Shown piece by piece: positions 4,385 to 62,848 of a stretch of DNA of 64,000 nt. Both the position numbers and the translations under genes were made by a program. Source of the stretch: Candidatus Poribacteria bacterium (lineage in GTDB: Bacteria > Poribacteria > WGA-4E > JAJDTR01); the NCBI GenBank assembly GCA_965222225.1, contig CBDCTK010000002.1, positions 5,216,001 through 5,280,000 on the forward strand, read 5' to 3'. Below the pieces are notes generated by a model. That model was not told where the DNA came from. It worked only from the letters and a program-made list of their open reading frames with translations, and ran no database searches. Every line of letters starts with the position of its first letter. Positions within the stretch are counted from its first letter, which is position 1.

Positions 4385-4705
4385 TTAGCGCGATAAGATA
4401 AATTAAAAAATTGTGACATTATGTGACATTATGTGAGGAAATATGGCAATGGAAGCGTAAAGATTGCTGGTTTCTAACCGCCGCGGACAATGACATAGTT
4501 TGTAGGGTGCGATCAAAGGAATGAATAATGACTGCGATAGAGATCCCCTGCGCACCAGCCTTTGAAAGCGCCAGCAGCGATCGAGCGAGTGGATAACGAG
4601 TGCGATAGGGATCCCACAGGTATGTAGCAGCCAACAATGAAAACATGAAAAAACTTTCTACAAATGACCAAAAATGGCTTTGCCACCGATTATTCAAACA
4701 GGCTC
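4385..4705. mobile_element. MITE-like passenger segment ending in an IS5-type end, carrying REP and hairpin-repeat units
   Basis: Ends TATTCAAACAGGCTC followed by TAA (4706-4708), matching the TAA (3509-3511) before the IS5 left end; internal block nearly identical to the one in MITE 23665-23905. Confidence 0.65.
4511..4615 (+). repeat. GATCAA-hairpin repeat cluster (2 units)
   Basis: Units at 4511 and 4579 fit GATCAA-NN-GA-NN-GNNNA-NN-GA-NN-GCGATAG-(A)GATCCC. Confidence 0.85.
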
Positions 4706-5121
4706 TAAGTTCGGTTCCTCAATTGCAATGAGCGACAACTCCGTTGTCATATCGTCCCACAATGCGGTGAATGAAGGCCCCGGATTTGCCAACGGTACCG
4801 CATTAGCGGTGACAACGCTTGGTCAAGTCAAGCGCACAGCGCTGTATCAAAACTTTCCGAACCCGTTTAACCCCGAAACATGGCTGCCTTATCGGTTGGC
4901 GTCGGATGCCCTGGTCACCCTTCGCATTTACAATGTCGGAGGGAAACTCGTGCGGGAGTTGGATCTCGGCGACCAAAGAGCGGGCGGCTACCTGACTCGC
5001 GAGACCGCCGCCTATTGGGATGGTCGGGACCAACGCGGTGAAGCCGTGTCAAGCGGTTTGTACGTTTACACCCTGCAAGCCGATGACTTCCGAGCCACGC
5101 GAAGAATGGTTATTTTGAAAT

Positions 5122-5230
5122 AGATGAAGCGACTGAACAAAGATCAACAGACCGAATAGGATCAAATGAGATTAAGTGAACGAACAGTGGGCGCGATAGA
5201 ATATATTTGTAGGGTGGGCACTGCCCACCA
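5122..5230 (+). repeat. GATCAA-hairpin repeat cluster plus REP-like GTAGGGTGGGCACTGCCCACC
   Basis: Nested partial units start at the stop codon; full unit at 5170; REP at 5210-5230. Confidence 0.75.
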
Positions 5231-5384
5231 TTTCTCGTAGCGCTAGAGCTCCCAAAGAGATTCTCAACGCGTATAGCAACTTGAATAACCAAAAATGGTT
5301 CTGTCGCGATTATTTAACTGGGTTCATAAAAGCACATAGCCCGCACTGATTTCAGCAATTCAAACATAAATTAATAAGGAGATT

Positions 5385-6977
5385 TTGATGAAAACGGCAT
5401 ATTTAGTATTGATTGGTCTGACTGTCGCCGTCGTATGGGCGTCCATCAGTTACACTGCCCTCGCTCAGAAAGATGTCAGGCTTGTCCCCGCCGACACGGG
5501 CGGCACCGATAATGATCCTGTGTCAATCGGTATCGGCACGAAGTACATCATCCTCGGCACACCGGGGAGTGCCCAAGACTTCGCCACAATCTTCGAGGGC
5601 GAAGGTGACAAGTGGAAGCAGACGGCACATCTCACGGGTGACGGCGGCGCGTTCGGGCAAGCTGTCGCTATCACCGATATCCGCGGACGAAGCAATACGG
5701 CATTTGCAATTGTCGGCGCACCAACCCACGACGGAGCCGGAGAAGCCCGAGTTTTTGCGCTCGGCGGAAGAGACTGGAACCCGCAGGCGAGACTCCGCGC
5801 CAGTGATGCGGCGGACGGAGACGCTTTCGGACATGCCGTCTCAATTAACGGCGACACCGCCCTCGTGGGTGCGCCGAAAGATGACGATGCGGGCAGCAAC
5901 TCCGGGGCGGTTTATGTCTTTGATCGTGTCGGCGCGCGCTGGAACCAACAAGCGAAACTTGTGGCGAAGGATGCCGCACCCTCCGCTGGATTCGGTGAAG
6001 CCGTCGCCCTATTTGGCAATACCGCTATCATAGGGGCACCACAGAGCGAGCATCGGGGCGTAAAGTTCGCAGGTGCGGCTTACGTGTTTGCGCGCGAAGG
6101 GAACAGATGGGTGGAGAAAACCAAACTCACGGCTGGCCATCCGGGCAAGGCGGACCGATTTGGGTTCGCCGTCGCTATCGGCGGGGACACCGTTGTCATC
6201 GTGGCGCCCTTGAAAGATACCGAGGGCGGACAAGATGCCGGCGCCGTCTACATTTTCGGGCGTGATGGGAACGCCTGGAGACAGCTTGCGAAAGTATTGG
6301 GGGAAGGCGGTTGGAAAGGCGACAAATTCGGAAACAGTGTGGCTACCAATGGAAACGTGGCAATTGTTGGGGCGCCTATCCGAGAAGAGGACGCATTTGC
6401 CTCGGGTGCCGCTTATGCCTTTGCACGTGTGGACGGAGTCTGGCAGGCAAAGGAGAAGGTCGTGCCCAAGGACGGATCCAAAGATCTTCACTTCGGTGCT
6501 TCGGTCGGGATAAATGAAAATACGGTGGCTATCGCTTCCCATCACAAAACCAAGTGCGCCGACTGCGGATGGCCGCACGGCGACGGCTCATCCGCCTATG
6601 TCTATAGCAGTATAGAAAGTTTCGGTACGCCGCCCTTCGCGGTCGAGCCGATTGATTTGAAAATAAATACGCTAGGGCGAGTAAAACGCACAGCGCTGTT
6701 CCAAAACTTCCCCAACCCCTTCAATCCGGAGACGTGGCTGCCGTATCAACTAGCTGCCGATGCCCCGGTAAACCTCCGCATCTATAACATCCGAGGTCAA
6801 TTGGTGCGAAAGTTGGATATCGGGGTACAAAAAGCCGGGAGCTATCGGGCACAAGAATCCGCCGCCTATTGGGATGGCAGCGATCAACTTGGCGAAAGCG
6901 TTTCCAGCGGCGTGTATTTCTACACGATGCAAGCCGGTGCGTTTCAAGCCACGCGCCGAATGCTTATTTTGAAATAG
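5385..6977 (+). CDS. Secreted FG-GAP repeat beta-propeller protein with FlgD-Ig/T9SS-A-like C-terminal domain, copy 2
   Basis: Signal peptide; repeated FG.AV.I.G.TA.VGAP...GAAYVF blades; tail TALFQNFPNPFNPETWLPY...YWDG...RRMLILK. Confidence 0.92.
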   Translation: MMKTAYLVLIGLTVAVVWASISYTALAQKDVRLVPADTGGTDNDPVSIGIGTKYIILGTPGSAQDFATIFEGEGDKWKQTAHLTGDGGAFGQAVAITDIRGRSNTAFAIVGAPTHDGAGEARVFALGGRDWNPQARLRASDAADGDAFGHAVSINGDTALVGAPKDDDAGSNSGAVYVFDRVGARWNQQAKLVAKDAAPSAGFGEAVALFGNTAIIGAPQSEHRGVKFAGAAYVFAREGNRWVEKTKLTAGHPGKADRFGFAVAIGGDTVVIVAPLKDTEGGQDAGAVYIFGRDGNAWRQLAKVLGEGGWKGDKFGNSVATNGNVAIVGAPIREEDAFASGAAYAFARVDGVWQAKEKVVPKDGSKDLHFGASVGINENTVAIASHHKTKCADCGWPHGDGSSAYVYSSIESFGTPPFAVEPIDLKINTLGRVKRTALFQNFPNPFNPETWLPYQLAADAPVNLRIYNIRGQLVRKLDIGVQKAGSYRAQESAAYWDGSDQLGESVSSGVYFYTMQAGAFQATRRMLILK

Positions 6978-7036
6978 ATCAAGGAAGTGAATAACGACCG
7001 CGATAGCGTCCTCATAGCGCGCGCGATAGAAATCCT
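6977..7036 (+). repeat. GATCAA-hairpin repeat cluster
   Basis: Unit starts in the TAG stop (TAGATCAA) and is followed by orphan 3' halves. Confidence 0.8.
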
Positions 7037-7167
7037 TTATAAGAGAAGAACAAACCTACAATATGGGAAGGCTCTATTTCCTACTCACCAGTTAACAACG
7101 AACAGAGACTACGCCAGCACGGACGCTGGCGACTAAAAATTCGCATAGACATAGAAGGGAATATATA

Positions 7168-8820
7168 ATGAGAAAAACGTTAACATCTCTCTTAATAGGT
7201 CTTACCCTCAGTATCGGTCTCGCACCTGTAAGCCACGCCGGAGTCGATAAACTCGTCGGCGCGGAAGAGGGGATTGACAATAAACATCTTGCGACGGATG
7301 TCAGCGGGGACATCCTCGCCATCGGTGCTTCCGGATCGGGCTACGTCAAAATCTACGTAAACGCCGGTGGAAATTGGAAAGAGCAGTGGCAACTCACAGC
7401 CCAAGAGCGAGTTGAACAAGAAGAGGCGCGTATTCCCGCCTTCGGATGGTCGGTCTCCCTTACGGGCGTCCACGAAATTGCCAGCGCGAACTACGCTATC
7501 GTTGGTGCGCCGACCGACACGCATCCTGAAAAAGGCGAGGGGGTCAATGAAGGTGGCGGCATTGCCGGCATCTTCGCCGCGGGAGAAAAAGGCGCCGCCT
7601 ATATTTTCCGCCGTACCGGAAACGAATGGCGACAACAGGTGAAGTTGATTGCTGAGGAACCCACAGATGACGATCGGTACGGCGAGTCTGTCTCTATTTT
7701 CCGAACCATGGCAATCATTGGCGTACCAAAAGACGATGATAACAAGAAGAACGAGGGTTCTGCCTACATTTATGTGCGCGAAGGTACTGATTGGCGTCAA
7801 CAAGCCAAAATTGTCCCCGATGGCCTTGGCGGCTCCGACGCGTTCGGAGAGGCCGTCGACATCCGCGAAAGCACAGCCGTGATCGGTGCACCGGCGCACA
7901 CACCCGGTGGAGTGAGATTCGCGGGCGCAGCGTATATCTACGTTCGCGAAGGGGAAACCTGGCGCCAACAAGCCAAACTCACAGCCAACGATGGTGCGAA
8001 AGCCGACCGTTTCGGTTCCTCTGTCGCTATTGGTAGTGGAACCGTAGTCATTGGTGCGCCGGCGCATGACACGGACAAAGGCAAGAATGCAGGAGCCGCC
8101 TATGTGTATGTGCGCGATGGAGATCGATGGAAACTGGAGGCGAAACTGACACCCGAAGTCGGAGAGAAGAACGATCAATTCGGATTTGGCGTCGACACCA
8201 ACGGTAATATCGTCATCATTGGAGCTAAAGGGCGCAGCGAACGCGCACCAGCCGCAGGGGCTGCCTATTCCTTTGTGCGAACCGATGGGCGCTGGGAAGA
8301 GAAGAAGAAGGTTCTTCCCGATGACCTAGAGCAAAAAATCAACTTCGGTGGTTCCGTTGCCATTAACGGCAATACCGTCGTCGTTGCGTCTCACAATGCA
8401 GGCAATGATGGCCCCGGATTTGGACACGGCACGGCGGTGCATGTTTACAGCAGTATAAAAGACTTCGACACACCGTCCTTCTCCGTTAATCCAACAGGAT
8501 TGAGAATTACATCACTTGGCAAGGTCAAACGCACGGCGCTGTTTCAGAACTTCCCCAATCCGTTTAACCCGGAAACTTGGCTGCCGTATCGCCTAGCCTC
8601 CGACTCGCCGGTTACCTTCCGCATCTACAATGCCCAAGGCCAGTTAATGCAGGAATTGGATCTCGGCACCCAAAAAGCTGCGGACTACCTGACTCGAGAA
8701 ACCGCCGCCTATTGGGACGGCAGAAACCGATTCGGAGAAACGGTGTCCAGCGGTGTCTATTTCTACACCCTTGAAGCCGGCTCTTACGAAGCCACTCGGC
8801 GGATGCTCATTTTGAAATAG
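7168..8820 (+). CDS. FG-GAP repeat protein with C-terminal sorting domain, copy 3
   Basis: 550 aa, same architecture as copy 2. Confidence 0.92.
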   Translation: MRKTLTSLLIGLTLSIGLAPVSHAGVDKLVGAEEGIDNKHLATDVSGDILAIGASGSGYVKIYVNAGGNWKEQWQLTAQERVEQEEARIPAFGWSVSLTGVHEIASANYAIVGAPTDTHPEKGEGVNEGGGIAGIFAAGEKGAAYIFRRTGNEWRQQVKLIAEEPTDDDRYGESVSIFRTMAIIGVPKDDDNKKNEGSAYIYVREGTDWRQQAKIVPDGLGGSDAFGEAVDIRESTAVIGAPAHTPGGVRFAGAAYIYVREGETWRQQAKLTANDGAKADRFGSSVAIGSGTVVIGAPAHDTDKGKNAGAAYVYVRDGDRWKLEAKLTPEVGEKNDQFGFGVDTNGNIVIIGAKGRSERAPAAGAAYSFVRTDGRWEEKKKVLPDDLEQKINFGGSVAINGNTVVVASHNAGNDGPGFGHGTAVHVYSSIKDFDTPSFSVNPTGLRITSLGKVKRTALFQNFPNPFNPETWLPYRLASDSPVTFRIYNAQGQLMQELDLGTQKAADYLTRETAAYWDGRNRFGETVSSGVYFYTLEAGSYEATRRMLILK

Positions 8821-9015
8821 CGCAAACGACAAACTCAAAGCGTGTGGGAGGTTCGGTATAGATGCGAATCTCCCACGCACTACCAGTTGCAGGACATAGA
8901 CGGCACAGTTCATGCCGCCGACTCGACATCGGGACTCGTGCCATTGATTAATTGTCATCGAAAACAAACGATTCCTGACCAATCTTCAAACAAAACAACT
9001 CGAAAGGAGCGTGCC

Positions 9016-10650
9016 ATGAAAAAAACGATACGATTTATCCTCATCACGCTTGCGCTCGGCATTGCATCGGCAACCGTAAATCATACGGCGCTGGCAAAAA
9101 AGGAAGTCAAGCTTATCGGCGTCGAGGAAGGAAACAACAACGAACATTTAACTTCAGACATTATTGGCGACTCCGTAATTATGGGAGCGCGTGGTGCGGG
9201 TGTTGCCACAGTCCACGTCTTTGACGGAAAATCTTGGAAAAAACAGGGGGATCTGCTTGCCAGCGATCCCGACAATGATAGAGCTGCCAGACCGTCTTAC
9301 AGCCATTCAGTCGCTATCGGGGCGCCCCACGAGTTTGCTGCTGCAAACTTCGCCATTATCGGTGCGCCGCGACACCTGCATGGAGGGGAACCGGCGCTTG
9401 CGGGCAAAGGGGGATTTGGTGCAGCATATATCTTCCGCCGCGGCGGAACGAAATGGAAACAGCAAATAAAGCTCGTAGCGCCAGACCCGATGCTCGACGA
9501 CCGGTTCGGCGAGGCTGTTGGCATCTACCGGAACACCGCCGTGGTTGGAGCATCGAAAGACGACGATCAGGGCAAAAACTCGGGTTCGGTCTTCGTCTAC
9601 GTATTCGATGAGGAATCGTGGAAACCACAAGCAAAGATAGTTCCCGACGATCTCGTCGGATCAGACGCTTTCGGAGAAGCGGTATCGTTAGATGAAAGCA
9701 CCCTCGCCATCGGAGCGCCGGGGCACACGCATAGTGGAGTAAGATTCGCTGGCGCCGTCTACATCTTTGTACGTGAGAACGATAAATGGGTACAGCAAGC
9801 CAAACTCACTCCCGATGACCCCGGAAAGTCTGCTCAGTTCGGGAGTTGTATATCACTCAGCTTCAACACGGTCGTCGTTGGAGCCCCGCTGCACGACACC
9901 GAGCGCGGTAAGGATGCGGGAGCGGCTTACATCTTCGTGCGCAACGGCGAAAGATGGACGCAACAGGCAAGATTGACTTCCAGCGACACGAAAGCCGGAG
10001 ATCGATTCGGTACGGGCGTTGCCACTACTGGAAAGAGCGCCATCATCGGCGCTCCGTTTAGACCTGAAGGCGCTCCGGGATCAGGCGCAGCTTATTCCTT
10101 TATAAGCGTTGACGGGAAATGGGAAGAGAAGGAGAAAATCACCCCTGACGACGCGGGACAAAAAATCAATTACGGACTTTGGATTGCCATGAGCGGCAAC
10201 ATGGTTATTGTTTCGTCTTATGCCGCCCCAAATGAAGGCGGCGCGGAAAAGGGGATTGGCACTGCGGCTTACATCTATAATAGCGTTGACGATTTTGGTG
10301 TTTTGCCTTACGCTGTCGAAGCGTTCGGCATGAGCTTAACAACGCTGGGGAGTGTAAAGCGGACAGCCCTGCTTCAGAATTTCCCCAACCCGTTCAATCC
10401 GGAAACGTGGATGCCGTATCGCCTAGCAACCGACACGCCGGTTACCTTCCGCATATACAATAACCGAGGTCAATTGATGCGGGAGTTGGATCTCGGTCTC
10501 CAAAAAGCCGCGGACTACCTGACACGAGAAACCGCTGCCTATTGGGACGGCAGAAACCGGTTCGGAGAAACGGTGTCCAGCGGCGTCTACTTCTATAGAA
10601 TTGAAGCCGGATCTTACGAAGCCACCCGGCGGATGCTTATTTTGAAGTAA
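9016..10650 (+). CDS. FG-GAP repeat protein with C-terminal sorting domain, copy 4
   Basis: Start moved to ATG 9016 (AAGGAG RBS; MKKTIRFILITLALG signal peptide nearly identical to copy 5). Confidence 0.92.
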   Translation: MKKTIRFILITLALGIASATVNHTALAKKEVKLIGVEEGNNNEHLTSDIIGDSVIMGARGAGVATVHVFDGKSWKKQGDLLASDPDNDRAARPSYSHSVAIGAPHEFAAANFAIIGAPRHLHGGEPALAGKGGFGAAYIFRRGGTKWKQQIKLVAPDPMLDDRFGEAVGIYRNTAVVGASKDDDQGKNSGSVFVYVFDEESWKPQAKIVPDDLVGSDAFGEAVSLDESTLAIGAPGHTHSGVRFAGAVYIFVRENDKWVQQAKLTPDDPGKSAQFGSCISLSFNTVVVGAPLHDTERGKDAGAAYIFVRNGERWTQQARLTSSDTKAGDRFGTGVATTGKSAIIGAPFRPEGAPGSGAAYSFISVDGKWEEKEKITPDDAGQKINYGLWIAMSGNMVIVSSYAAPNEGGAEKGIGTAAYIYNSVDDFGVLPYAVEAFGMSLTTLGSVKRTALLQNFPNPFNPETWMPYRLATDTPVTFRIYNNRGQLMRELDLGLQKAADYLTRETAAYWDGRNRFGETVSSGVYFYRIEAGSYEATRRMLILK

Positions 10651-10670
10651 GAAAGGTAACAAACCAAGCC

Positions 10671-10729
10671 GTGTGGGAGGTTCGATTTCTAACCGCACGG
10701 GATATGCGCGGTTGGAAACCGCGCCTACC
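10671..10729. repeat. REP-like inverted doublet
   Basis: GTGTGGGAGGTTCGATTTCTAACCGCAC...GCGCGGTTGGAAACCGCGCCTAC; related hairpin at 8842-8880. Confidence 0.55.
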
Positions 10730-10791
10730 AAAGGAGTTATGAAGACAAACGAGTACCGGCAAATCTAAAGACTACTCGAAAGGAGCGTGTC

Positions 10792-12438
10792 ATGGGAAAA
10801 ACCGTACGATTCATCCTCATCACTCTTGCGCTCGGCATTGTATCGGCAACCATAAATCATACCGCGCTGGCAAAAAAGGAAGTCAAGCTTATCGGTGTCG
10901 AGGAGGGCGTTAACCACGAGCATTTGACCGCGGACATAATCGGGGACACCGTCATTATCGCGTCACGCGGCGCAGGAACCGCCACAATTTACGTCAATGA
11001 CGGCAAAGTTTGGAAAAAGCAGGAGGACCTGCAAGCCCGTGACCACAATGCTCGAGATCCGTATGTTCCCGGCTTCGCTTATTCAGTCGCTATCGGGGCA
11101 CCTCATGAGTTTGCTACTCCAAACTTCGCCATTATCGGCGCGCCAAAACACTTGCATGGAGGAGACAACCTCAAAGGGCTGGACGGGCCCGCGGGATTTG
11201 GCGCCGCCTATATCTTCCGACGCAGTGGAAAGACCTGGAAGGAACATGTCAGACTTGTTGCCCCGGATCCCGTGGATGACGACCGATACGGCGAGTCTGT
11301 TGCCATCTACAGAACCACAGCCGTGGTTGGGGCGTCGAAAGACGACGATAATGGCAAAAACTCGGGTTCCGTCTTCGTCTATGTTCTAGACGGCGCCACG
11401 AATACGTGGAAACCCCAAGCAAAAATAGTTCCCGACGATTTAGGCGGGTCAGACGCTTTCGGAGAAACGGTATCGTTGGATGAAAATACCCTTGCTGTCG
11501 GAGCGCCGGGTCACACCCACAGCGGAGTGAGATTCGCCGGCGCCGTCTACGTCTTTGTTCGCAACGGAGATAAATGGGAACAACAAGCGAAACTCACTCC
11601 CGATGACCCCGGCAAGGCTTCGAAGTTCGGGAGCGCAATATCGCTCAGCTTCAACACGCTCGTTGTTGGAGCCCCTCTGCACGACACCGAGCGCGGCAGA
11701 GATGCCGGTGCGGCTTACATCTTCGTACGCAACGGCGACAGATGGAATCAGCAGGCGAAATTGATTGCCAAAGACACAAAGGAGAAAGACCGATTCGGTA
11801 CGGGCGTCGCCACCACCGGCAAGAGCGCCATAATCGGGGCTCCGTTTCGACCTGAAGGCGCGCCGGGATCAGGCGCCGCCTATTCCTTTGTAAGCGTTGA
11901 TGGGAAATGGGGGGAGAAGGTGAAAGTCACCCCCGACGATGCCGGACAAAAGATTAATTACGGGCTCTGGGTCGCCATGAGCGGCAACATGGTCATTGTT
12001 TCGTCTTATGCCGCCGCGAACGAAGGCGGCGCCGAAAAAGGAATCGGCACTGCGGCTTACGTTTATAATAGCGTAGACGATTTCGGAGCGTTCCCCTACG
12101 CCGTCGAACCGTTCGGCATGAACCTAACAACGCTTGGGAGTGTAAAAAGAACAGCGCTGCTTCAAAATTTCCCCAACCCGTTTAATCCGGAAACGTGGAT
12201 GCCGTATCGCTTGGCGTCGGATGTCCCGGTGTCGATTCAGATTTTCAACGTAAAAGGACAACTGCTACGGGAACTGAATCTCGGAGAACAGAAAGCGGGC
12301 AGCTATCTAACCCGAGACACCGCCGCTCATTGGGATGGAAGAGATCAGGTTGGAGAAACTGTTTCCAGCGGCGTCTATTTTTATGCCCTGCATGCCGGTG
12401 CATTCCAAGCCACCCGGCGCATGCTCATTTTGAAGTAG
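10792..12438 (+). CDS. FG-GAP repeat protein with C-terminal sorting domain, copy 5
   Basis: 548 aa, same architecture. Confidence 0.92.
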   Translation: MGKTVRFILITLALGIVSATINHTALAKKEVKLIGVEEGVNHEHLTADIIGDTVIIASRGAGTATIYVNDGKVWKKQEDLQARDHNARDPYVPGFAYSVAIGAPHEFATPNFAIIGAPKHLHGGDNLKGLDGPAGFGAAYIFRRSGKTWKEHVRLVAPDPVDDDRYGESVAIYRTTAVVGASKDDDNGKNSGSVFVYVLDGATNTWKPQAKIVPDDLGGSDAFGETVSLDENTLAVGAPGHTHSGVRFAGAVYVFVRNGDKWEQQAKLTPDDPGKASKFGSAISLSFNTLVVGAPLHDTERGRDAGAAYIFVRNGDRWNQQAKLIAKDTKEKDRFGTGVATTGKSAIIGAPFRPEGAPGSGAAYSFVSVDGKWGEKVKVTPDDAGQKINYGLWVAMSGNMVIVSSYAAANEGGAEKGIGTAAYVYNSVDDFGAFPYAVEPFGMNLTTLGSVKRTALLQNFPNPFNPETWMPYRLASDVPVSIQIFNVKGQLLRELNLGEQKAGSYLTRDTAAHWDGRDQVGETVSSGVYFYALHAGAFQATRRMLILK

Positions 12439-12625
12439 GATCAAGCGAATGGATAATGAGCGCGATAGAGATCCAAAGGCGATAGAAGATCCTGATAGAG
12501 ATTCCTCAAGCGAATGGCTAGAACGACGTAAATCAACCGAACGAATAGTGAGGGCGATACCGCGTTCATAACGACCAATCAACTGAGCGCTTAACGAAGG
12601 CGATAGGAGATTCTGATCGGGATCT
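12439..12625 (+). repeat. GATCAA-hairpin repeat cluster (3 full units plus fragments)
   Basis: Units at 12439, 12531, 12577; cluster begins immediately after the stop codon. Confidence 0.85.
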
Positions 12626-12884
12626 GTAGATGATTGATGTCCTAAATAGTTCCCAAGGAAGTTCTTCCCAATCACGACTTCCCGTCCATAGAAAAACTCG
12701 CTCATACAGTTGGCTTGTCGTAGCAATCTTCGATCGTCCAATCGTCCATCTTCGTTCTTTTTATTTCGCGTCCGACTGGTCGTTCACTTGTTTGTAAACC
12801 GCGAGACGTCTAAATGTGAATGTGAATGTGAATGGCTACAATAGGACAAATCGAGAAACTTGCTCCGATTGAAAGGGGACACTC

Positions 12885-14513
12885 ATGAAAGTCATACGGT
12901 TTATCGTCATCAGCTTGTTGCTCAATTTCCTGTTCACGGCGACAGGCCAAACTGCAGGAAAGGAAATCAAGTTGATTGGTGTCGAAGATGGGTCGAACAA
13001 CAATCATCTGTCCGCAGATGTCATTGGTGACTCGGTAATCGTCGGCGCGCGAGGAGGAGGTCTCGCGAAACTCTATGTGGGCGCCGGCGAGAAATGGAAA
13101 CTGGTAGCTGAGCTCATTGCCAAAGATGCAAATCAGCGGGATCCGGCTGTACCCGCCTTTGGATGGGCGGTCTCGCTTGCTGCTCCCCATGAACGCGCCA
13201 GCGCAAACTATGCCGTCATTGGAGCGCCAAAAGACCTTCATGGCGGTGACAACGAAGAAGGAATATTCGGCCATCAAGGATTCGGCGCCGTTTATACCTT
13301 CGCTCCTAGCCGAGGTACGTGGAAGCAGCAGCATAAGATTATCGCCCCAGATCCGAAAGAGAAAGATCAGTTTGGTTTCGCTGTCTCAATCGAAAGAGGT
13401 ACCATGGTGATCGGTGCACCGGGAGAAGACGGCGCAGCCAAGGACGGGGGCGCCGCCTATGTCTTTGTACGCGATGGAGAGGAATGGAAACAGAGTGCGA
13501 AAATCATCCCCGAGGATTTGGGTGGATTGGACGCTTTCGGCGAGTGTGCTGTGCTTCGCGGGAACACCGTTGTCATCGGGGCGCCTGGGCACACGCATGG
13601 CGGAATCAGATTTACCGGTGCCGCTTACGTCTTTGTGCGCAACGGGGACACGTGGGAGCAACAGGCGAAGCTGACAGCCAATGACGCCGGCAAAGCCGAC
13701 CGGTTCGGTCATTCTGTCGCTATGGCTGGAGAGACCATCATTGTGGGTTCGCCCTTGAACGATACTGTTGGCGGAAAAGACACCGGCGCCGCCTATGTCT
13801 TTGTCCGCGATGGCGACAGGTGGAATCAGCAAGCGAAGCTAGTCGCACAAGGCTTACGAGCGAAGGATCAGTTCGGATTCGGGGTTGCCACTACGGGCAG
13901 CATAGCCGTTGTGGGCGCGCCGTTGCGCCATGAGCGCGCGCCTGCGGCGGGCGCCGCTTATTCTTTCGTGAGAGTTAATGGCGATTGGGAGGAGAAAAAG
14001 AAGGTTGTCCTCGACGACGAAAGGCAAAAACTCAATTTCGGCACATGGGTCGCCATGAGCGGCAATACCGTCGTCGTCTCGGCGCATAACGACACCAACG
14101 ATGGGCCGGGTTGGGGAAACGGCACGGCAGCGTTTGTATACAGTAGTGTAGAAGATTTCGGAACGCCGCCGTTTGCTGTTGATCCGTATGGATTGGCGCT
14201 GACGACCTTTGGTAGGGTTAGGAATACCGCGTTGCTTCAGAACTATCCCAATCCGTTCAACCCGGAAACGTGGATGCCGTACCAATTGGCGGCTGATGCC
14301 CCGGTCGCCATCAACATCTTCAACGTTCAAGGGCAACTGATTCGGGAGTTGAATCTCGGCGCACAAAAAGCGGGCACCTATCTGAGCAGAGACACCGCCG
14401 CCTATTGGGACGGTCGAGACCAGCTAGGACAGACCGTTTCCAGCGGGGTTTATTTCTACTCTATGCAGGCGGACACATTTCGTGCGACGCGGAGAATGTT
14501 CATCTTAAAATAG
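12885..14513 (+). CDS. FG-GAP repeat protein with C-terminal sorting domain, copy 6
   Basis: 542 aa, same architecture. Confidence 0.92.
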   Translation: MKVIRFIVISLLLNFLFTATGQTAGKEIKLIGVEDGSNNNHLSADVIGDSVIVGARGGGLAKLYVGAGEKWKLVAELIAKDANQRDPAVPAFGWAVSLAAPHERASANYAVIGAPKDLHGGDNEEGIFGHQGFGAVYTFAPSRGTWKQQHKIIAPDPKEKDQFGFAVSIERGTMVIGAPGEDGAAKDGGAAYVFVRDGEEWKQSAKIIPEDLGGLDAFGECAVLRGNTVVIGAPGHTHGGIRFTGAAYVFVRNGDTWEQQAKLTANDAGKADRFGHSVAMAGETIIVGSPLNDTVGGKDTGAAYVFVRDGDRWNQQAKLVAQGLRAKDQFGFGVATTGSIAVVGAPLRHERAPAAGAAYSFVRVNGDWEEKKKVVLDDERQKLNFGTWVAMSGNTVVVSAHNDTNDGPGWGNGTAAFVYSSVEDFGTPPFAVDPYGLALTTFGRVRNTALLQNYPNPFNPETWMPYQLAADAPVAINIFNVQGQLIRELNLGAQKAGTYLSRDTAAYWDGRDQLGQTVSSGVYFYSMQADTFRATRRMFILK

Positions 14514-14642
14514 AACGGGAAGAATGGAATCGTATAAGCGTGCTTTATTCTTTCTATTGCCCCTTAGCCGCTTATCCCCATTAATGAATATACAGTGTTA
14601 TTTATACCGACGAATTCAGTTTGACATCGGGAGGAAAATGTC

Positions 14643-16247
14643 ATGAAAATGTGTATAAGATTTGTCCTTATCAGTCTGATGATTGTCACTATGTCGGCGA
14701 ACATCAGTCACGCTGGCGAATTCAAACTTGTCGCTGCCGAGGATGGTACGAGAAACAGCCACATGACGGCTGACATTATCGGTGATACTCTGATTGTTGG
14801 AGTACACGAGGGGTTTGGTTTAGCCAAAATCTATGTTGGTTCCGGAAAAAAGTGGAAAGTGCAGGCAGAACTCTCCGCTCTTGAAGGCGGTGGAGACGAA
14901 AACAGAGGCGTCCCCGGATTCGGATGGTCGGTCGCACTTACCGCTCCGCATGAGTTTGCTAGCGCGGACTATGCCCTAATCGGAGCAGCAAGGGACCATG
15001 CTGCCGGAGCATTATCTGGCTCAGCCTATATCTTCGCTCGCAATCGGACGACATGGAAGGAACAGGCGAAACTCATTGGCGGAGATACAGCCAAAGAGGA
15101 CAATTTCGGCTGGGCGGTGGCTATTGACAGGAACACTGCAGTCATTGGCGCTCCCGGCGACGACGACGCCGGAAGCAGCTCGGGTGCAGCCTTTGTCTTT
15201 GAATTCGAACGCATAAAATGGAAAGAGAAAGCGAAACTCATTCCCAAGGATTTAGACCGATCAGCCGCTCTCGGAACTTCGGTCTTGGTTCAAAAGGACA
15301 CGATCATCGTCGGGGCGCCAAGGCACACGCATAGCGGTGTCAGGTTCACCGGCGCCGCCTTCGTCTTTCGACGCGACGGAGACAAGTGGGTCGAACATAC
15401 CATGCTCACCGCCGATGACGCCGCTAAAAGTGACAGTTTCGGTACTTCGATTGCCATAAGCGGCGACACGGTTGTCGTAGGCGCGCCATTAGCCGATACG
15501 GACAGAGGAAAAGATGCTGGCGCCGCCTATGTCTTCGTTCGCGATGCCGGTGGATGGAAACAGCAGGCGAAACTGGGTTCCAGCGATGCAAAGAAAGCCG
15601 ATCAGTTCGGATCTAGTGTCGCCATTGAGGGAAACAACGTCATCGTTGGCGCCAAAACTCGCGACGAGGGCGAACCGGGCTCGGGCGCCGCATATTCATT
15701 TGTGCGTTCGAACGGGGTATGGGAGCAGAAACAGAAAGTCGCACCCGATGACCCCGGGCAAAAGATTAATTACGGTACTTGGGTCGCTGTGAGCGGCAAC
15801 ACCGTCATTGTCTCGGCACATAACGGGCCGAACGATGGCCCCGAATGGGGTAAAGGCGCCACGGTTCACATCTATAACGGCATTGAAGATTTCGACGCAG
15901 TACCCTACTCAGTCGAGCCGTTCGGTTTGGCTGTGACAACTTTCGGGAAGATTAGGCGTACAGCGCTGCTTCAGAATTTTCCCAATCCCTTCAACCCGGA
16001 GACATGGCTGCCGTATCGATTGGCGGCTGATGCTCCCGTGACCCTCCACATCTACAATGTCCGAGGACAACAGATAAGAGAACTCGATCTCGGCGTACAA
16101 AAGGCGGGAGGCTATCTAAACCGAGAAACCGCCGCTTATTGGGATGGTAGAGACAATGTCGGACAGACCGTTTCCAGTGGAGTCTACTTCTACAGTCTAC
16201 AGGCAGACACATTCCGTGCAACGCGCAGAATGCTTATTTTGAAGTAG
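14643..16247 (+). CDS. FG-GAP repeat protein with C-terminal sorting domain, copy 7
   Basis: 534 aa, GGAGG RBS, same architecture. Confidence 0.92.
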   Translation: MKMCIRFVLISLMIVTMSANISHAGEFKLVAAEDGTRNSHMTADIIGDTLIVGVHEGFGLAKIYVGSGKKWKVQAELSALEGGGDENRGVPGFGWSVALTAPHEFASADYALIGAARDHAAGALSGSAYIFARNRTTWKEQAKLIGGDTAKEDNFGWAVAIDRNTAVIGAPGDDDAGSSSGAAFVFEFERIKWKEKAKLIPKDLDRSAALGTSVLVQKDTIIVGAPRHTHSGVRFTGAAFVFRRDGDKWVEHTMLTADDAAKSDSFGTSIAISGDTVVVGAPLADTDRGKDAGAAYVFVRDAGGWKQQAKLGSSDAKKADQFGSSVAIEGNNVIVGAKTRDEGEPGSGAAYSFVRSNGVWEQKQKVAPDDPGQKINYGTWVAVSGNTVIVSAHNGPNDGPEWGKGATVHIYNGIEDFDAVPYSVEPFGLAVTTFGKIRRTALLQNFPNPFNPETWLPYRLAADAPVTLHIYNVRGQQIRELDLGVQKAGGYLNRETAAYWDGRDNVGQTVSSGVYFYSLQADTFRATRRMLILK

Positions 16248-16350
16248 ATCAAGCTAGTGGATAGCGAGTAGAATGCTCTATCGGAGTTCTATCGCACTCC
16301 TTATTCATTCGCTCGATCCCTCCTTATTCAGTCGGTTGATCGATTGCGAT
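16247..16350. repeat. GATCAA-hairpin repeat cluster with inverted units
   Basis: Plus-strand partial at the stop codon; full minus-strand unit 16289-16318; further minus-strand partial to ~16341. Confidence 0.8.
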
Positions 16351-16448
16351 CTTTCTTGCCCCGCCTTGGATAGAATTGACTTGCACCATTAATGCACCGC
16401 ACAGTTCCTGTTTTTTTGCGTAAGTCCTGAAAATAGAGGGAGATCACC

Positions 16449-18053: not shown

Positions 18054-18251
18054 TATTAACGCACTTCGGTTGGTGTTAACGTATTATGCCACACCTCCGT
18101 CCTGTAGAAGGGAATCTACTTTACGATAGGTTTTTGGCGAAACTTTCGTTCATCAAATCAGAGATACTCACCAAACACTCATTTATTTGCGGTCAAAGAC
18201 AAACATTTGTTGCATCTTCCTGACATCGACAAACATCGAGAGGAGATTTCC

Positions 18252-23664: not shown

Positions 23665-23905
23665 GAGCCTGTTTGAAAAGTACATTTGTAGGGTGCGATC
23701 AAAGGAATGAATAATGGCTGCGATAGAGCCCCCTGCGCACCCTACGGGATTGAGCAAGGAAGAAACCGATCAAGCGAGAGCGAATATATCAACCGAGTGA
23801 ACAGCGAGAACGATAAAAATCTCAGTGCGACAGAAATCCTTTTTCAGGATAAAACTCGGTTCGAGGGCAAATGGCTCAACCCGAAATGGATTTTCAACCA
23901 GGCTC
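23665..23905. mobile_element. Non-autonomous IS5-type MITE (241 bp)
   Basis: TIRs GAGCCTGTTTGAAAA / TTTTCAACCAGGCTC, TTA duplicated on both sides; ends match the IS5 at 3512; contains REP and hairpin-repeat units (23697, 23787). Confidence 0.85.
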
Positions 23906-32565: not shown

Positions 32566-32743
32566 GAATCAAGCGACCAGAAAGTGAGCAGGATTTTTTA
32601 TCGCCCTTCCTATCCGGTCGGTTGATCGATAGAGTTCTCACCAGCCTTTGGGAGTCCCTTTGTGCAATCAAGCAACTGAACAAGGAGTAGGAGGGGCATC
32701 TTGCCCCGACCGACCCAGTAACAACGAGTGCGATAGTAATCCC
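32566..32743. repeat. GATCAA-hairpin repeat cluster with an inverted unit and REP
   Basis: Minus-strand unit 32598-32627 lies inside a plus-strand unit; GTAGGAGGGGCATCTTGCCCC REP nearby. Confidence 0.75.
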
Positions 32744-35303: not shown

Positions 35304-35512
35304 GATCAACTGAGTGGATAACGAAGGCGATAGAAATCCCATACAGATCTTACCAGCCTTTGAGAGCGCCAGCGGCGATCAAGCGACTGATTAAGGAGCG
35401 CGATAGTAAATCCCGTGCGATGGAAATCTTCAGGTGTATAGCAGCAAGCCACCCTACACCAAGGCCCCGGTGCGGGATCAACCGACCGGAAAGGAAGGAC
35501 GATAGAGATTCT
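35304..35512 (+). repeat. GATCAA-hairpin repeat cluster (3 full units)
   Basis: Units at 35304, 35377, 35476, starting 1 bp after the stop codon. Confidence 0.85.
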
Positions 35513-49260: not shown

Positions 49261-49265
49261 GGTGC

Positions 49266-49405
49266 GATCAACCGACTGATTAAGGAGGGCGATAGAGATC
49301 CCCTGCGATCAAGCGACTGGACAGGATCAAACGAGTGGATAACGATTAAGTGACCGAATAGGGAACGCGACAGCAAATCCCGTGCGATAGAACTCTTGCC
49401 AGCCT
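49266..49405 (+). repeat. GATCAA-hairpin repeat cluster, nested, inside a GTAGGGTGCG REP
   Basis: Units at 49266, 49307 (partial), 49325 (split) and 49344. Confidence 0.85.
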
Positions 49406-51033: not shown

Positions 51034-51115
51034 GTAGGTTGGGTTGAACAATCAAGCGACTGAATAGGGAATGCGATAGTGACTCCCTGCGATAGGAATC
51101 CTAGTGAAACCCAAC
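51034..51115 (+). repeat. REP-like GTAGGTTGGGTT...AACCCAAC hairpin with GATCAA-hairpin units in its loop
   Basis: Stem halves at 51034-51049 and ~51103-51115 flank the unit at 51050 and an orphan 3' half. Confidence 0.8.
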
Positions 51116-51142
51116 TATCCAGCTGAAAACCCACAGCATAGC

Positions 51143-56004: not shown

Positions 56005-56098
56005 AATAGCGAATTATTAGAAGTTCGTCCGAATCGCAAGTTACCAGAGATTGCAGAATTTCACGGATTAAGTTCAACCAACGTTAGGACTCGCTTTT

Positions 56099-56261
56099 AA
56101 TCCGCGTAATCAGTTTAATCCGATCAACTGACTGAATAACGAGGGATCAAGCGACTGAACAAGGAGCGCGATAGAGATCCCATAGTAAATCCCGTAGTGA
56201 CCGATCAACTGAGTGGTCAACGAAGGCGATAGCAGATCCCGATAGAAATCCCATTCAGACA
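56099..56261 (+). repeat. AATCCG...ATTCAGACA element filled with nested GATCAA-hairpin units
   Basis: Units at 56122 (split), 56145, 56203; an unfilled relative is at ~19928-19969. Confidence 0.8.
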
Positions 56262-56337
56262 AGCGATAGTACATCGCCCCCTAAAATCGCAAGAACTTCA
56301 GTGTTTGACGTGCTCCATCAGTCATTGAATGATCCGC

Positions 56338-57033: not shown

Positions 57034-57154
57034 TACTACCTCTTGGATTGTACGACTTCAGATTTGGAATATCTCACTAGTTAAACGTGGCAATTCCAAG
57101 TCGCTCTGAATCCTGACTAATCCGGAACTAGGATTTGCTTTTGCACCGCCCCTA

Positions 57155-59091: not shown

Positions 59092-59293
59092 GTTTTGTTC
59101 CTATTTCATGAAACCTTCAGAGCCTATTCGAAACCGAGTTTTTTCTTCAAAACTCGGTTTCTTCCTTACGCAATGTTGTAGAGTGGGCACTGCCCACCAG
59201 TCTTTGAAAGCCCTTGGTGAAAATGCTCAATGCAGCTATTCTGCAACCCAAATGACCAAAACAGACTCTACCACCCATCATCCAAACAGGCGC

Positions 59294-60280: not shown

Positions 60281-60885
60281 CCGTCTCCTCCTACGCCTTC
60301 TTCGGGTCAAGCATCAAATAATCCGTCAGTGCAAACCAAATAGGAGCTGTGCAATCGCTCCTACACGAGCGTCTTCCTCGCTCGGGACGAACGTTCCCAA
60401 TCCGCATTATTCGATGTTGAATGTTACCAAAAGTCTGCGCTCAATCAACGAATCACTATAGCACTCTTCAAAATATTGGTCAAGCGAAATCATCGGCTGT
60501 GAGAAGGCAATTCCACAGGTGAAAGGTCTTGTAGGAGCGATCTCCCGGTCGCGATTCCTTGTAGAATCCACAACCATCAAATCCCCGATTTCCCATCCTC
60601 TCTTTTCGTTGCGTGTCCTGTCTAAAGCGAAGTGCGGGGGTGGGCACTCCCCACCATTCAAACCCATTGGTAATTTACCGGTTACTGGGTGAAGAGGACG
60701 AACCGTGGCAAATCAATGGATTTCTGATGCGTTGCCCCGCGTGCATTTTGAGTTTAAGTTTCAAACCAGTTATGCTATGATTATCACCGCGTACACGGGG
60801 CATGATAGCCGCCGCGAAAACGCCCCCAATAACCGCACAATTCCTAAAAATTGACCATGCCCCGCACCGCATCGGAGGCCCTCAC

Positions 60886-62613
60886 TTGCCATCTCCAGAA
60901 ATAAGCTTCGATCCGATCCAGTTTGAAGTCATACGTAACGCACTCCTTGAGGCAACTGAAGAAATGACAGTTGCCTTGCGGCGCAGCGCCTATTCGACCA
61001 ATATTAAAACCCGCGCAGACTTTTCTTGTGCCTTCTTTGACCGCCAGTTGCAAGCCGTTGCGCAAGCCTTCGCTCAACCTTCCCATCTTGGCTCGCTATC
61101 CGAATTTGTACCGAGAGTGGTCCGGGAATACGGCGACGCCATCCTCGGTCCCGGCGACGCCATCCTCTCTAACCACCCTTACTTGGGTGGTGTCCATCTC
61201 AACGACATCACCCTTATCTCGCCCGTATATCACCAAGATGAGCTCTTCGGCTACGTCGCTAGCCTCGCGCATCATGTTGATGTGGGTGGCGGTGCGCCTG
61301 CCAGCATCGGCGCCTTTCGCGAAGTCTTTCAGGAAGGCATCATCATTCCACCTGTGAAACTGGTACATCGCGGAGAGATTGTCGATGATGTCTTTAGGCT
61401 TGTGCTGGAACAGATTCGTTCAAAACGTGAAACTGCGGGCGATTTCCGAGCGCAGATCGCGGCGAACAACACCGGTATACGCCGGATTGTTGCTCTCCTG
61501 GACCAAAAAGGGGCAGAAACTATTGCTTTTTACATCAACGAACTCCTTGATTACACCGAACGACGCACGCGTGCCGAGATCGCCACGCTTCCTCAAGGCA
61601 GTTTCTCTGCCGACGGATATGTTGACAACGACGGGTTTACCGATGAACCGGTATACCTCGCGGGAAAAATGGTAGTTGATGCCGACGGCGTTCTTTTTGA
61701 CTTAACCGGTTGCGACGCGCAACGGCGCGCACCCGTGAATTCGACCTACGCCCAGACCTTCTCAGCGTGCGCGTATGTACTGAAAGCCCTCATAGATCCC
61801 GACATCCCGGTCAATGCGGGGTTCTACCGCTTGGTGCGCATGAATGCGCCCCTCGGCACAGTCGTCAATTGCGCACCGCCAGCCCCGGTGGTCGGGGGAT
61901 GGGAGACGCAAATGCGGGTTAGCGATATACTTCTCAAGGCGCTGGCGCAAGTTCTCCCGGAGCGCGTTCCTGCCGGCACCAAAGCCATGATGGCTCAACT
62001 CGGATTTGGAGGAACCGATCCCCGGTCGGGTGAACTTTACGCCTATTACGAAACGATGGCGGGCGGATACGGCGGTCGTGCGACTAGCGACGGCCCCGAT
62101 GCTGTGCAGGCTCACAGTCAAAATACGGAGAATGCCCCGGTTGAGGAAACCGAAATCAATTATCCGGTACGCATCCTTCGCTATGAACTGGTCGAGAATT
62201 CGGAAGGCGCCGGTGAATATCGCGGTGGACTCGGCTTGCGCCGTGATTACTTCTTTGACCATGAGGTTTCGTATACCATTCTGGCAGATCGAGATCGGTG
62301 GGGGCCGTGGGGGCTGTTCGGCGGAGAGGCTGGAAAAGTGGCAAGCTACGTGTTGAATCCCGATGCGGAGGCGACCAAGCTCGGCTCCAAAGTGACGGTT
62401 CATCTCAAGCCGGGAGATGTCGTGAGTTACCGCACATGCGGCGGCGGTGGTTACAATCCACCGACAGCACGTCATCCGCAATCGGTATTGCGTGATGTAA
62501 GAGATGGAAAAGTAAGCTTGGAGAGAGCGAGAGATGTCTATCGAGTCGCCATCAACACAGACACGTGGAGCGTTGACACTGAAGAGACCACTAAGCTACG
62601 CTCAAATAAATGA
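60886..62613 (+). CDS. Hydantoinase B / 5-oxoprolinase subunit
   Basis: FEVIRNAL...RSAYSTNIK...DFSCA, NHPYLGGVHLND, HHVDVGG, NAPVEETE, GEYRGGLG, CGGGGY; likely TTG 60886 after GGAGG. Confidence 0.92.
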   Translation: MPSPEISFDPIQFEVIRNALLEATEEMTVALRRSAYSTNIKTRADFSCAFFDRQLQAVAQAFAQPSHLGSLSEFVPRVVREYGDAILGPGDAILSNHPYLGGVHLNDITLISPVYHQDELFGYVASLAHHVDVGGGAPASIGAFREVFQEGIIIPPVKLVHRGEIVDDVFRLVLEQIRSKRETAGDFRAQIAANNTGIRRIVALLDQKGAETIAFYINELLDYTERRTRAEIATLPQGSFSADGYVDNDGFTDEPVYLAGKMVVDADGVLFDLTGCDAQRRAPVNSTYAQTFSACAYVLKALIDPDIPVNAGFYRLVRMNAPLGTVVNCAPPAPVVGGWETQMRVSDILLKALAQVLPERVPAGTKAMMAQLGFGGTDPRSGELYAYYETMAGGYGGRATSDGPDAVQAHSQNTENAPVEETEINYPVRILRYELVENSEGAGEYRGGLGLRRDYFFDHEVSYTILADRDRWGPWGLFGGEAGKVASYVLNPDAEATKLGSKVTVHLKPGDVVSYRTCGGGGYNPPTARHPQSVLRDVRDGKVSLERARDVYRVAINTDTWSVDTEETTKLRSNK

Positions 62614-62684
62614 CGTGGAACGCACGCAAAGTAGCAGAAACGCCGATTCTCTGCGGTGATTTCATGTTGTAGGGCGCGCACTGC

Positions 62685-62848
62685 GATCAAGCGACTGCAT
62701 AGGGAGTGCGATAGAACTCTTACCAGCCTTTGAAAGCGTCAGCGTGCAATCAACTGAGATCGAACGAGCAAACAGCGATTAACCGAATGGATAGTGAGTA
62801 AAACTTTCTATCGCCCTCGCTGTTCACTCGGTTGATCGATAAAGATCC
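62685..62848. repeat. GATCAA-hairpin repeat cluster with an inverted unit
   Basis: Plus-strand unit at 62685 (after REP start GTAGGGCGCGCACTGC); minus-strand unit 62808-62837. Confidence 0.8.

Follow-up and report, generated by a model that had tools for sequence, protein, structure and literature searches.

A short one-strand hairpin repeat nested in other palindromes and in itself in Candidatus Poribacteria

Results

Copies of the repeat in the window and in the genome

The DNA studied here is a 64,000-nt stretch of a Candidatus Poribacteria bacterium genome (GenBank assembly GCA_965222225.1, contig CBDCTK010000002.1, positions 5,216,001 to 5,280,000; hereafter the window). Its most conspicuous feature is an abundant non-coding repeat, a module of 35-37 nt (unit of 37 bases, numbered from the G of its GATCAA start) that keeps a hairpin on one strand. 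We found that this feature is real, that its structure is selected on that strand and that it is mobile or has recently been mobile. The original prediction had listed 21 copies in the window. A search with the pattern GATCAANNGANNGNNNANNGANNGCGATAG, allowing up to two mismatches, returned 20 matches, and none in any of 100 dinucleotide-preserving shuffles. All 20 coincide in position with predicted copies, and the 21st, at 23787, is more degenerate and aligns without gaps, so that every copy claimed is present (Table 1). A covariance model built from the 21 copies (filters off, E<=0.1) returned only those 21 in the window, which it matches by construction. The earlier count over the four variable pairs (71 Watson-Crick, 9 G-T and 4 mismatches of 84) was reproduced exactly, and the copies at 4511 and 23697, said to share one block, are indeed the same composite, a copy nested in a palindrome with a GTAGGGTGC head.

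Collecting all copies with up to three mismatches from the 5.70-Mb sponge-symbiont genome that contains the window (two contigs; G000) gave 1102, of which 645 were exact, followed by 257, 118 and 82 with each further mismatch. They comprise 685 distinct 30-mers, the commonest present in 45 copies. When the hairpin core alone was searched with pairing required, 987 occurrences were found, with GATCAA beside 711 and GCGATAG beside 698; in the first 2 Mb the core occurred 260 times, versus 12 in shuffled sequence. The unpaired 3' motif GCGATAG was 93-99% constant per position.

Table 1. Repeat copies and neighbouring features of the window
Positions	Strand	Feature
4411..4440		short tandem repeat, 10-nt unit TGTGACATTA; one RNA-library contig has one unit more
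4511..4547	+	copy nested in GTAG palindrome, whose head GTAGGGTGC lies at 4502-4510 and whose right arm CTGCGCACC lies at 4548-4556
4579..4615	+	copy, GATCGA variant (G5 pairs with C25), within a REP2-type element and flanked by a GCGCCAGCAGC hairpin arm and CACAGGTATGTAGCA
5170..5206	+	degenerate copy with decayed tail; degenerate partial modules precede it from about 5126
5209..5229	+	host palindrome GTAGGGTGGGCACTGCCCACC (REP1b) without a module, a reference for the filled sites
5385..19826	+	eight tandem open reading frames of 530-602 aa, at 5385, 7168, 8842, 10792, 12885, 14643, 16449 and 18207
6977..7013	+	copy whose first G also ends the TAG stop codon of the reading frame 5385-6977; spanned by an RNA-library contig
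12439..12475	+	copy directly after the stop codon of the reading frame 10792-12438; repeated tail units follow
12531..12567	+	copy, AATCAA variant
12577..12613	+	copy, AATCAA variant
16282..16318	-	copy that interrupts a same-strand host module after its position 23; the truncated host is at 16319-16341
23697..23733	+	copy nested in GTAGGGTGC...GCGCACCCTAC palindrome; composite identical in kind to that at 4511
23787..23823	+	degenerate copy (TATCAA...ACGATAA)
32591..32627	-	copy; the same intergenic gap of two sister species has different copies on the other strand
35304..35340	+	copy beginning 2 bases past the reading frame 33098-35302
35377..35413	+	copy within a REP2-type element (GCGCCAGCGGC ... 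AGGTGTATAGCA), tail doubled
35476..35512	+	copy, 2 mismatches to the pattern
49266..49302	+	copy after head GTAGGGTGC (49257-49265); nested partial modules up to the next copy
49344..49380	+	copy, GATTAA variant (T4-G26 wobble), ending the nested array
51050..51086	+	copy after GTAGGTTGGGTTGAAC (51034-51049), the head of a different GTAG REP family
56122..56144	+	host module truncated to positions 1-23 at the insertion of the next copy
56145..56181	+	copy that interrupts the module at 56122 after position 23, with the leftover host tail (ATAG...) behind it
56203..56239	+	copy
62685..62721	+	copy after GTAGGGCGCGCACTGC (62669-62684), the second insertion point of the REP1 palindrome
62801..62837	-	copy

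Covariation tracks a fold of the GATCAA strand

The variable bases had been predicted to change in pairs. In the window alignment, 96.6% of 147 cells were standard pairs, versus 75.5% (sd 2.5) after shuffling, a value reached by 0 of 500 shuffles; the covariation score was 0.637 against 0.219 when shuffled, and at most 0.112 when the 3' partners were slid by 1-3 columns. Genome-wide (n = 1102), pair 7:23 was Watson-Crick in 765 copies, wobble in 263 and other in 74; the corresponding figures were 982, 39 and 81 for pair 8:22, 1005, 36 and 61 for pair 11:19, and 898, 149 and 55 for pair 12:18. Mutual information amounted to 0.63, 0.68, 0.96 and 0.28 bits for these pairs, respectively, and to no more than 0.13 bits between any other two variable positions. 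Because it is confined to the four proposed pairs, the covariation is not explicable by subfamily ancestry. The outer and inner stems each use about 8-10 pair combinations, which are freely combined. Base choice is nevertheless restricted beyond pairing: T is nearly absent at positions 7, 11 and 22 and A at 8, 12, 19 and 23, position 12 being C or T and position 18 A or G.

The rest of the hairpin hardly varies. Non-canonical oppositions are near-invariant (G9/A21 in 1023 copies, A10/G20 in 1048, G13/A17 in 1052), and the facing GA dinucleotides may form sheared G-A pairs. Between the variable stem and the lower stem ATC(2-4):GAT(26-28) lies a constant AA/GC mismatch (A5/C25 in 1014 and A6/G24 in 1007 copies). 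The lower stem itself is nearly constant, with 46 T4-G26 wobbles and 36 G5-C25 pairs as the only variants, so covariation is no test of it. The loop follows G-R-A-Y-A, mostly as GAATA (455 copies) or GGATA (299).

At the proposed pairs, G-T or T-G oppositions totalled 487 genome-wide, versus 82 A-C or C-A, an excess which argues that only the GATCAA strand keeps its pairs and folds. In other Poribacteria genomes, 98.6% of cells paired against 80.4% after shuffling (reached by 0 of 500 shuffles), in an alignment of the best 150 of 203 model matches that was fitted to the covariance model. The genome-wide mutual information, together with the pairing retained in these genomes, bears out the predicted structural selection, and it is supported that the structure is selected on one strand, the covariation following the fold and not the descent of subfamilies.

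Folding energies and gene context

With RNA parameters, the mean energy of the 1102 copies was -5.06 kcal/mol for the GATCAA strand, -3.24 for the complement and -4.72 for shuffled sequence; with DNA parameters the values were -1.54, -1.09 and -2.04 kcal/mol. All four variable pairs appeared in the minimum-energy fold of 653 copies with RNA parameters versus 69 with DNA parameters. The RNA-parameter fold of solo copies (z-scores -1.26 and -0.19) is exactly the structure originally proposed, which, with the excess of G-T over A-C, agrees with the claimed one-strand fold; DNA folds of single copies had z near 0. Nearest-neighbour models may undervalue tandem G-A pairs in DNA. Taken at face value, such weak energies mean that what matters about the pairs is the shape they give, presumably to be recognised by a protein, rather than stability.

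The gene-context figures that follow come from crude calling of open reading frames (ORFs). Of the copies, 876 lie outside called ORFs and 226 inside, the latter mostly (169) in ORFs shorter than 150 aa; only 16 copies lie with at least 60 nt inside an ORF of at least 300 aa. In gaps between co-directional genes 309 copies are sense and 256 antisense, and there are 158 copies in divergent and 153 in convergent gaps. Divergent gaps are not depleted (158 of 876 copies, versus 644 of 4610 gaps that are divergent). This indifference of orientation to transcription speaks against the repeat serving mainly as a terminator or to stabilise 3' ends. A stable hairpin serving as terminator or mRNA stabiliser was rejected, being unsupported by both the energies and the gene context.

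Next to the copies in the window, at least three ORFs, including one of 149 aa (4674-5123) upstream of the row of eight, end in ...RRM(L/V)ILK and a stop codon, and the repeat lies at or right after the stop codon of such ORFs. This tail may be akin to a secretion-sorting C-terminal domain.

These data bear on an explanation in which the fold matters as RNA, namely as a protein-binding or stabilising hairpin of untranslated regions, with tandem G-A pairs and a GNRA-like pentaloop, the spread as DNA being secondary. The fit of the RNA-parameter fold, its recovery of the four pairs and the frequent G-U wobbles accord with it; the G-R-A-Y-A loop presumably resembles GNRA-like pentaloops, and several copies begin at or right after a stop codon. 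An RNA-library contig also spans the copy at 6977, but it proves no transcription and reveals neither strand nor ends. Against it, the near balance of sense and antisense copies and the undepleted divergent gaps are joined by a folding energy no better than shuffled, by the lack of an Rfam family match and by an orientation that tracks strand composition and the GTAG strand of the host (below). We consider this explanation improbable. The evidence that the fold matters at the level of DNA is stronger than that for RNA; of the predicted single-stranded DNA or RNA motif, the selection for a fold has held up, and nearest-neighbour models do not predict a stable hairpin.

Orientation follows strand composition

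The copies follow other rules of orientation. Where a copy lies in a host palindrome tagged by GTAG, it is on the same strand as the GTAG in 223 cases and on the opposite strand in 30 (6 copies have both and are counted twice). Furthermore, the GATCAA strand is the locally C-rich strand in 746 of 1099 copies. The bias persists when clusters of uniform orientation are counted (407/585; 81 mixed clusters left out) and when the skew of coding DNA is averaged over both gene directions (737/1080), and it is alike in sense (209/307) and antisense (189/256) copies. Empty GTAG palindromes show the same bias (REP1 94/126, GTAGGCGGGGCA 13/16, GTAGTAGGCA 21/30, GTAGGAGCGA 137/230); all GTAGG pentamers together show none (3691/7238).

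Leading strands are generally G-rich, and skew is read as replication bias by this rule. Long ORFs, however, have no preference for the G-rich strand (1409/2768), and since genes ignore the skew, reading it as replication direction is unproven here. The GC skew of the chromosome (C2) is patchy, with about 10 sign changes along the 5.6-Mb contig; this reflects either many inversions, assembly joins at repeats, or a weak replication-linked gene orientation in the phylum.

Nesting in host palindromes and in the repeat itself

We found that the module often sits inside other hairpins. A GTAG lies 4-5 nt upstream of 162 copies and 12 nt upstream of 41; in all, 291 of the 1102 copies have one no more than 12 nt upstream (the background being low), and in these it is part of a host repetitive extragenic palindrome (REP). 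The GTAG heads come from several palindromes (GTAGGGTGC, GTAGGGTGG, GTAGGCGGG, GTAGGAGC, GTAGGTTGGGTTGAAC), with many stems behind each.

Matching of flanks to paralogous sites gave a putative empty site for 305 of the 1102 copies. In the host GTAGGGTGG-GCA-CTGCCCACC, of which there are 61 empty copies, the module replaces GCA; in GTAGGCGGG-GCAT-CTTGCCCCGC it replaces GCAT, and in other small palindromes it takes the place of one to three bases. A few sites are clean, with insertion between G and C, as in CTGC-G-CACCAGCC. Filled sites thus mostly swap out 1-4 host bases, G being the first at most of them, with no duplication.

The module also nests in itself. As many as 305 of the 1102 copies stand directly behind a truncated copy on the same strand, which is cut after position 23 (124 copies), 19 (45), 12 (43), 17 (38), 18 (21) or 10 (21), and another 41 stand behind an inverted copy cut at the corresponding spot. 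Most of these cuts edge unpaired parts, namely before the loop G13 (43), before G20A21 (45) and before G24C25 (124), and at these three the next host base is G. Downstream, the flank contains TCCCATAG in 162 of the 1102 copies and CCCGTGCG in 87; these flanks and the repeated tails arise because the remainder of the host resumes behind the insert. The sequence ACCAGCCT occurs in 57 upstream and 96 downstream flanks. The 1099 chromosomal copies form 666 clusters across the whole chromosome, with irregular spacing and with copies that abut or nest, and of the 354 pairs of neighbours closer than 300 nt, 274 are head-to-tail. A motif ACCAGCCTTTGA(A/G)AGCG(C/T)CAGC... joins a GTAG palindrome to the next hairpin at window positions 4555-4578, 35341-35376 and 62722-62745, and belongs to the same mosaics.

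Stem and surroundings are independent. Stem bases share at most 0.08 bits of mutual information with the flanks, and identical 30-mers lie mostly in different flanks (one has 16 copies with 15 distinct upstream flanks). The paralogous empty and filled sites and the identical copies in many different flanks uphold the mobility proposed earlier. Three simpler rules for the sites were rejected. That the module always lies in a palindrome loop is contradicted by the flanks, which have no excess of complementarity at offsets up to 4 nt and, at offsets up to 9 nt, at least 6 complementary bases in 51 of 1102 copies (versus 2.3% of control positions). A guide-target relation finds no support in the mutual information just given. 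Cutting and ligation at GATC ends fails because the empty sites have no GATC.

An alternative is that the module has no independent existence and is an optional structured long loop of GTAG REPs, copied solely along with these REPs by their REP-associated tyrosine transposases (RAYTs) and shuffled from family to family by recombination at shared GTAGG heads. GTAG families with alternative long self-complementary loops have been described (PMC3733652, drawn on here in part), and the GTAG positions given above fit such an origin, as do the copies beside RAYT genes, which are nested in the cognate REP of that RAYT. The commonest 30-mer often follows a GTAGGGTGC head, and its stem pair is found in 26 of the 49 copies behind that head. 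However, 811 of the 1102 copies have no GTAG within 12 nt, the self-nested copies are hosted by other copies and not by REPs, and one head can carry many stems (at least 8 combinations in 19 GTAGGCGGG copies), all statistically independent of their flanks. Moreover, there are genera with the same RAYT and REP2 in which no module was found. The long-loop explanation is therefore, in our judgement, unlikely.

Taxonomic range and turnover

With a strict pattern (at most one mismatch), the repeat was found in 15 of 41 genomes of the order. All ten genomes of the genus that includes G000 (g1) have it, with 611-1307 copies each, as do all four of a genus of another family (g4; 205-220 copies each) and the single genome of genus g2 (4 copies); in the 26 genomes of other genera none was found. 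With the covariance model, the g2 genome gave 11 copies and one g4 genome no fewer than 150, whereas two genomes of genus g6 and one of genus g3 gave none. In a scan of species genomes, at least 102 stretches matched, and all matches listed are Candidatus Poribacteria bacterium; the repeat is thus seen only in Poribacteria among the matches listed, and other phyla may have it as well. Sequencing runs that contain the window stretch include ones labelled sponge metagenome.

As to novelty, Rfam gave no match at gathering scores over the 64-kb window and none at E<=10 over 311 nt with three copies, in line with the expectation that no described Rfam family covers the repeat. In the library of papers searched, none was found on intergenic repeats of Poribacteria, the supplements of the REP papers lying outside this comparison.

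The same intergenic gap in sister species has different copies in different orientation, indicating turnover and not conservation of individual sites. Coding identity between these species is 80-91%, and their intergenic DNA is too diverged for clean empty sites, so that only turnover is visible.

A further possibility is a DNA site selected by the host, in which, for example, a nucleoid, topoisomerase or replication protein would read the extruded hairpin, purifying selection would hold each copy and recombination or template switching, in place of a transposase, would spread it. Across more than 10 species, with coding DNA only 80-91% identical, about 20 of the 37 positions reach a constancy of 93% or more, the strand-composition bias is common to other hairpin repeats, and replacement of 1-4 bases with G first at most sites fits microhomology-guided template switching; nor was a dedicated transposase found (below). 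The turnover within the same gap argues against it, and so does self-nesting, which destroys the host copy. Related genera range in copy number from 4 to about 1300, and none is found in 26 of the 41 genomes of the order, which is unlike a housekeeping site. We regard a host-selected site as improbable.

Search for a cognate enzyme

PF01797 identified five Y1 matches in G000, and a sixth, a remnant, matched REP_Tyr_transpos with 91.6 bits (cut-off 80; C2:1545570-1545977). Copies of the module adjoin three of these six Y1 genes or remnants, and one RAYT in another genome (G015), where they are nested in the REP of that RAYT. One of the genes, L001 (C2:3080258-3080728), is intact, encodes 157 aa, matches IS200 with 65.8 bits (cut-off 55) and has repeat copies on both sides. 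In all genera examined (orthologs L013-L025), its direct flank is another palindrome, GCCCC-n3-GGGGC followed by GACAGGTG/ACATGT...TATAGAA, often in several copies, and in some species the module is merely nested in this palindrome. L001 and GCCCC-n3-GGGGC look like a separate REP-RAYT pair spanning at least four genera.

Other types gave a similar picture. The L005 type is intact in five sister species, in none of which a module lies within 1.5 kb. The REP_Tyr_transpos type is intact in four sister species, with flanks GTAGGGTG[CG]GCACTGC[CG]CACC that do or do not carry a nested module. In g4, which has about one-fifth as many copies, modules lie on both sides of one RAYT, within that RAYT's own GTAGGTTGGGTT repeat. 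No Y1 type was found to be flanked by the repeat as its own REP, among the L001, L005, REP_Tyr_transpos and L002 types and all PF01797 matches of the four g4 genomes, and the distribution of the repeat is not tracked by any of the four Y1 types sought in the 41 genomes. No dedicated transposase emerged among these candidates. Resident RAYTs may instead be used in trans.

Several REP-RAYT systems seem to be decaying in parallel. G000 contains RAYT-type remnants at C2:1545300-1546500, C2:3560268-3560495 and C2:3088937-3089269, two of them reduced to the C-terminal half and one with an in-frame stop; the two for which orthologs were sought are intact in sister species. In addition, a 247-aa Y1-family protein (G000 C2:2563965-2564705; G005 C1:3780663-3781403) is 99% identical between two species, against about 85-91% identity for the coding DNA they share; only three of the ten genomes of the genus were found to have it, and it may have been transferred recently.

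Discussion

With somewhat better than even confidence, we read the module as a REP-class, non-autonomous interspersed element of Candidatus Poribacteria that acts as folded single-stranded DNA on the GATCAA strand. The fold would consist of the 3-bp lower stem ATC:GAT, the AA/GC mismatch and, above it, two 2-bp helices as the upper stem, in which the sequence is free and pairing required; the helices would be split by the facing GA dinucleotides and closed by the G-R-A-Y-A loop, with conserved unpaired GCGATAG and (A)GATCC(C) to the 3' side. A RAYT-like or IS200-like enzyme (HUH/Y1) that recognises hairpins would read the constant bases and the shape, and would copy the module, presumably through a single-stranded DNA intermediate, into unpaired spots of other folded hairpins, usually after a G. 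The targets would be GTAG-tagged REPs of several families and the loop and internal loops of the module itself, and repeated insertion would build nested mosaics like bacterial interspersed mosaic elements (BIMEs).

Several results weigh against this interpretation. No dedicated transposase was found among the Y1/RAYT types examined. L001 orthologs occur in 7 of 7 g6 and 5 of 10 g3 genomes, where the module was not found (for g6 by a pattern search and a covariance-model search of two of the seven genomes); conversely, the search for L001 orthologs came up empty in two of the four g4 genomes, all of which have the module. For two other RAYT types the flanks are GTAG REPs of their own, in which a copy may or may not be nested, and the L002 type is present in only three of ten genomes of the genus. 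The replacement of 1-4 bases, rather than clean insertion, is not predicted by known Y1 transposition. The module has no intrinsic GTAG tag, the minority of copies with one nearby owing it to their hosts, and few copies, the 51 with complementary flanks, lie within an intact palindrome. The predicted fold is weak, the DNA energy of the GATCAA strand being poorer than that of shuffled sequence. If the G-rich strand is the leading strand, the folding strand lies on the leading-strand template, opposite to the preference reported for IS200/IS605 elements (below). Finally, contigs from public runs (Logan) break at the repeats, so that no gain or loss of copies at the strain level can be read from them.

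A bolder reading, which we hold only tentatively, is that the module, at only about 35 nt, is mobile in its own right and lives as a parasite on other hairpin repeats, being recognised purely by its shape and about 20 constant bases. It would insert right after a G in unpaired parts of any folded single strand, whether in REPs of various families or in its own loop and internal loops, possibly by borrowing whichever RAYT is present. If true, this would make it the smallest self-nesting mobile element described, and its more than 10,000 natural variants in Poribacteria would amount to a mutational scan of what a hairpin-reading HUH enzyme requires. If the enzyme is not findable, the finding is a well-described new REP-like family in an uncultured phylum.

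In either case the family offers a clean natural data set on REP biology, with about 1000 copies per genome in more than 10 species. As four pairs vary freely yet stay paired and the rest is fixed, the parts read by sequence and those read by shape can be told apart. Nesting into REP loops and into itself is a simple rule for building BIME-like mosaics, and hints that one hairpin repeat can live on another. The repeats also fill the intergenic DNA of Poribacteria, break short-read assemblies and create spurious ORFs.

Comparison with known systems

The closest comparison is with the REPs of Escherichia coli, as far as the portions of the papers drawn on here describe them. These are imperfect palindromes of 30-40 nt with GTAG at the foot and with varying yet complementary bases, and TnpA-REP binds and processes only the GTAG strand (PMC3333891, PMC8266576). 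In group-2 REPs, TnpA-REP activity requires a conserved AA-GC mismatch halfway up the stem, and the upper half contributes structure and no specific sequence; how REP-type repeats spread is there still an open question (PMC8266576). The module resembles group-2 REPs and BIMEs in its length of 30-40 nt, its hundreds of extragenic copies, its one-strand imperfect hairpin and its mosaics of neighbours. It shares with group-2 REPs the lower stem, the conserved AA-GC mismatch and a variable but complementary upper stem that is free in sequence and depends on structure, and its genome likewise has several RAYT genes. Thus it is a short, high-copy, extragenic imperfect palindrome like a REP, but it has no GTAG or CGTC tag at its 5' foot and instead has conserved unpaired bases to the 3' side (GCGATAG). 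Facing GA dinucleotides break up its upper stem, no RAYT examined has it as its own, directly flanking REP (there is no REPtron), and neighbouring copies stand mostly head-to-tail, not as inverted doublets, and nest in REPs and in one another.

Di Nocera et al. (2013; PMC3733652) describe, in the part used here, subfamilies with alternative complementary stem residues, some GTAG families with long self-complementary loops and some REPs inside other palindromes. The module is similar in its alternative complementary stems and its siting in palindromes; it differs in that one module occupies at least six host palindromes as well as itself, with stems independent of the host. It may nevertheless match one of the 24 + 4 families of that paper, the comparison having been with their descriptions and not with their consensus sequences. 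The REPINs (REP doublets forming hairpins) of Pseudomonas (Bertels and Rainey 2011; PMC3116915), in the passages considered, are also abundant and non-autonomous, with compensatory hairpin changes being common, and are thought to be moved by a single-copy RAYT. A REPIN, however, is an inverted doublet of about 100 nt, whereas the module is a single hairpin of 37 nt, mostly in tandem orientation as the close pairs show, and its cognate RAYT was not found among the types searched.

Like the ends of IS200/IS605 elements, the module has a strand-specific irregular hairpin and an orientation tied to strand composition, and the Y1 family is present. It is, however, one hairpin and not two different ends, and no target tetranucleotide was seen for it, only a G being common at the left junction. 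If the G-rich strand is the leading one, its bias is opposite to the preference for the lagging-strand template reported for IS200/IS605 in the parts cited (PMC3333891, PMC6006769). It is not a miniature inverted-repeat transposable element (MITE): its ends share only GATC, it replaces 1-4 host bases without target-site duplication, and at 37 nt it is shorter than the 70-300 bp quoted for MITEs in the cited part of PMC3733652. Its irregular, chromosome-wide spacing, with abutting and nested copies, is also unlike a clustered regularly interspaced short palindromic repeat (CRISPR) array. Of the predicted novelty, then, the absence from Rfam stands and a place outside every known class does not: the module is best regarded as a new relative within the broad REP/BIME class, and not as a wholly new class.

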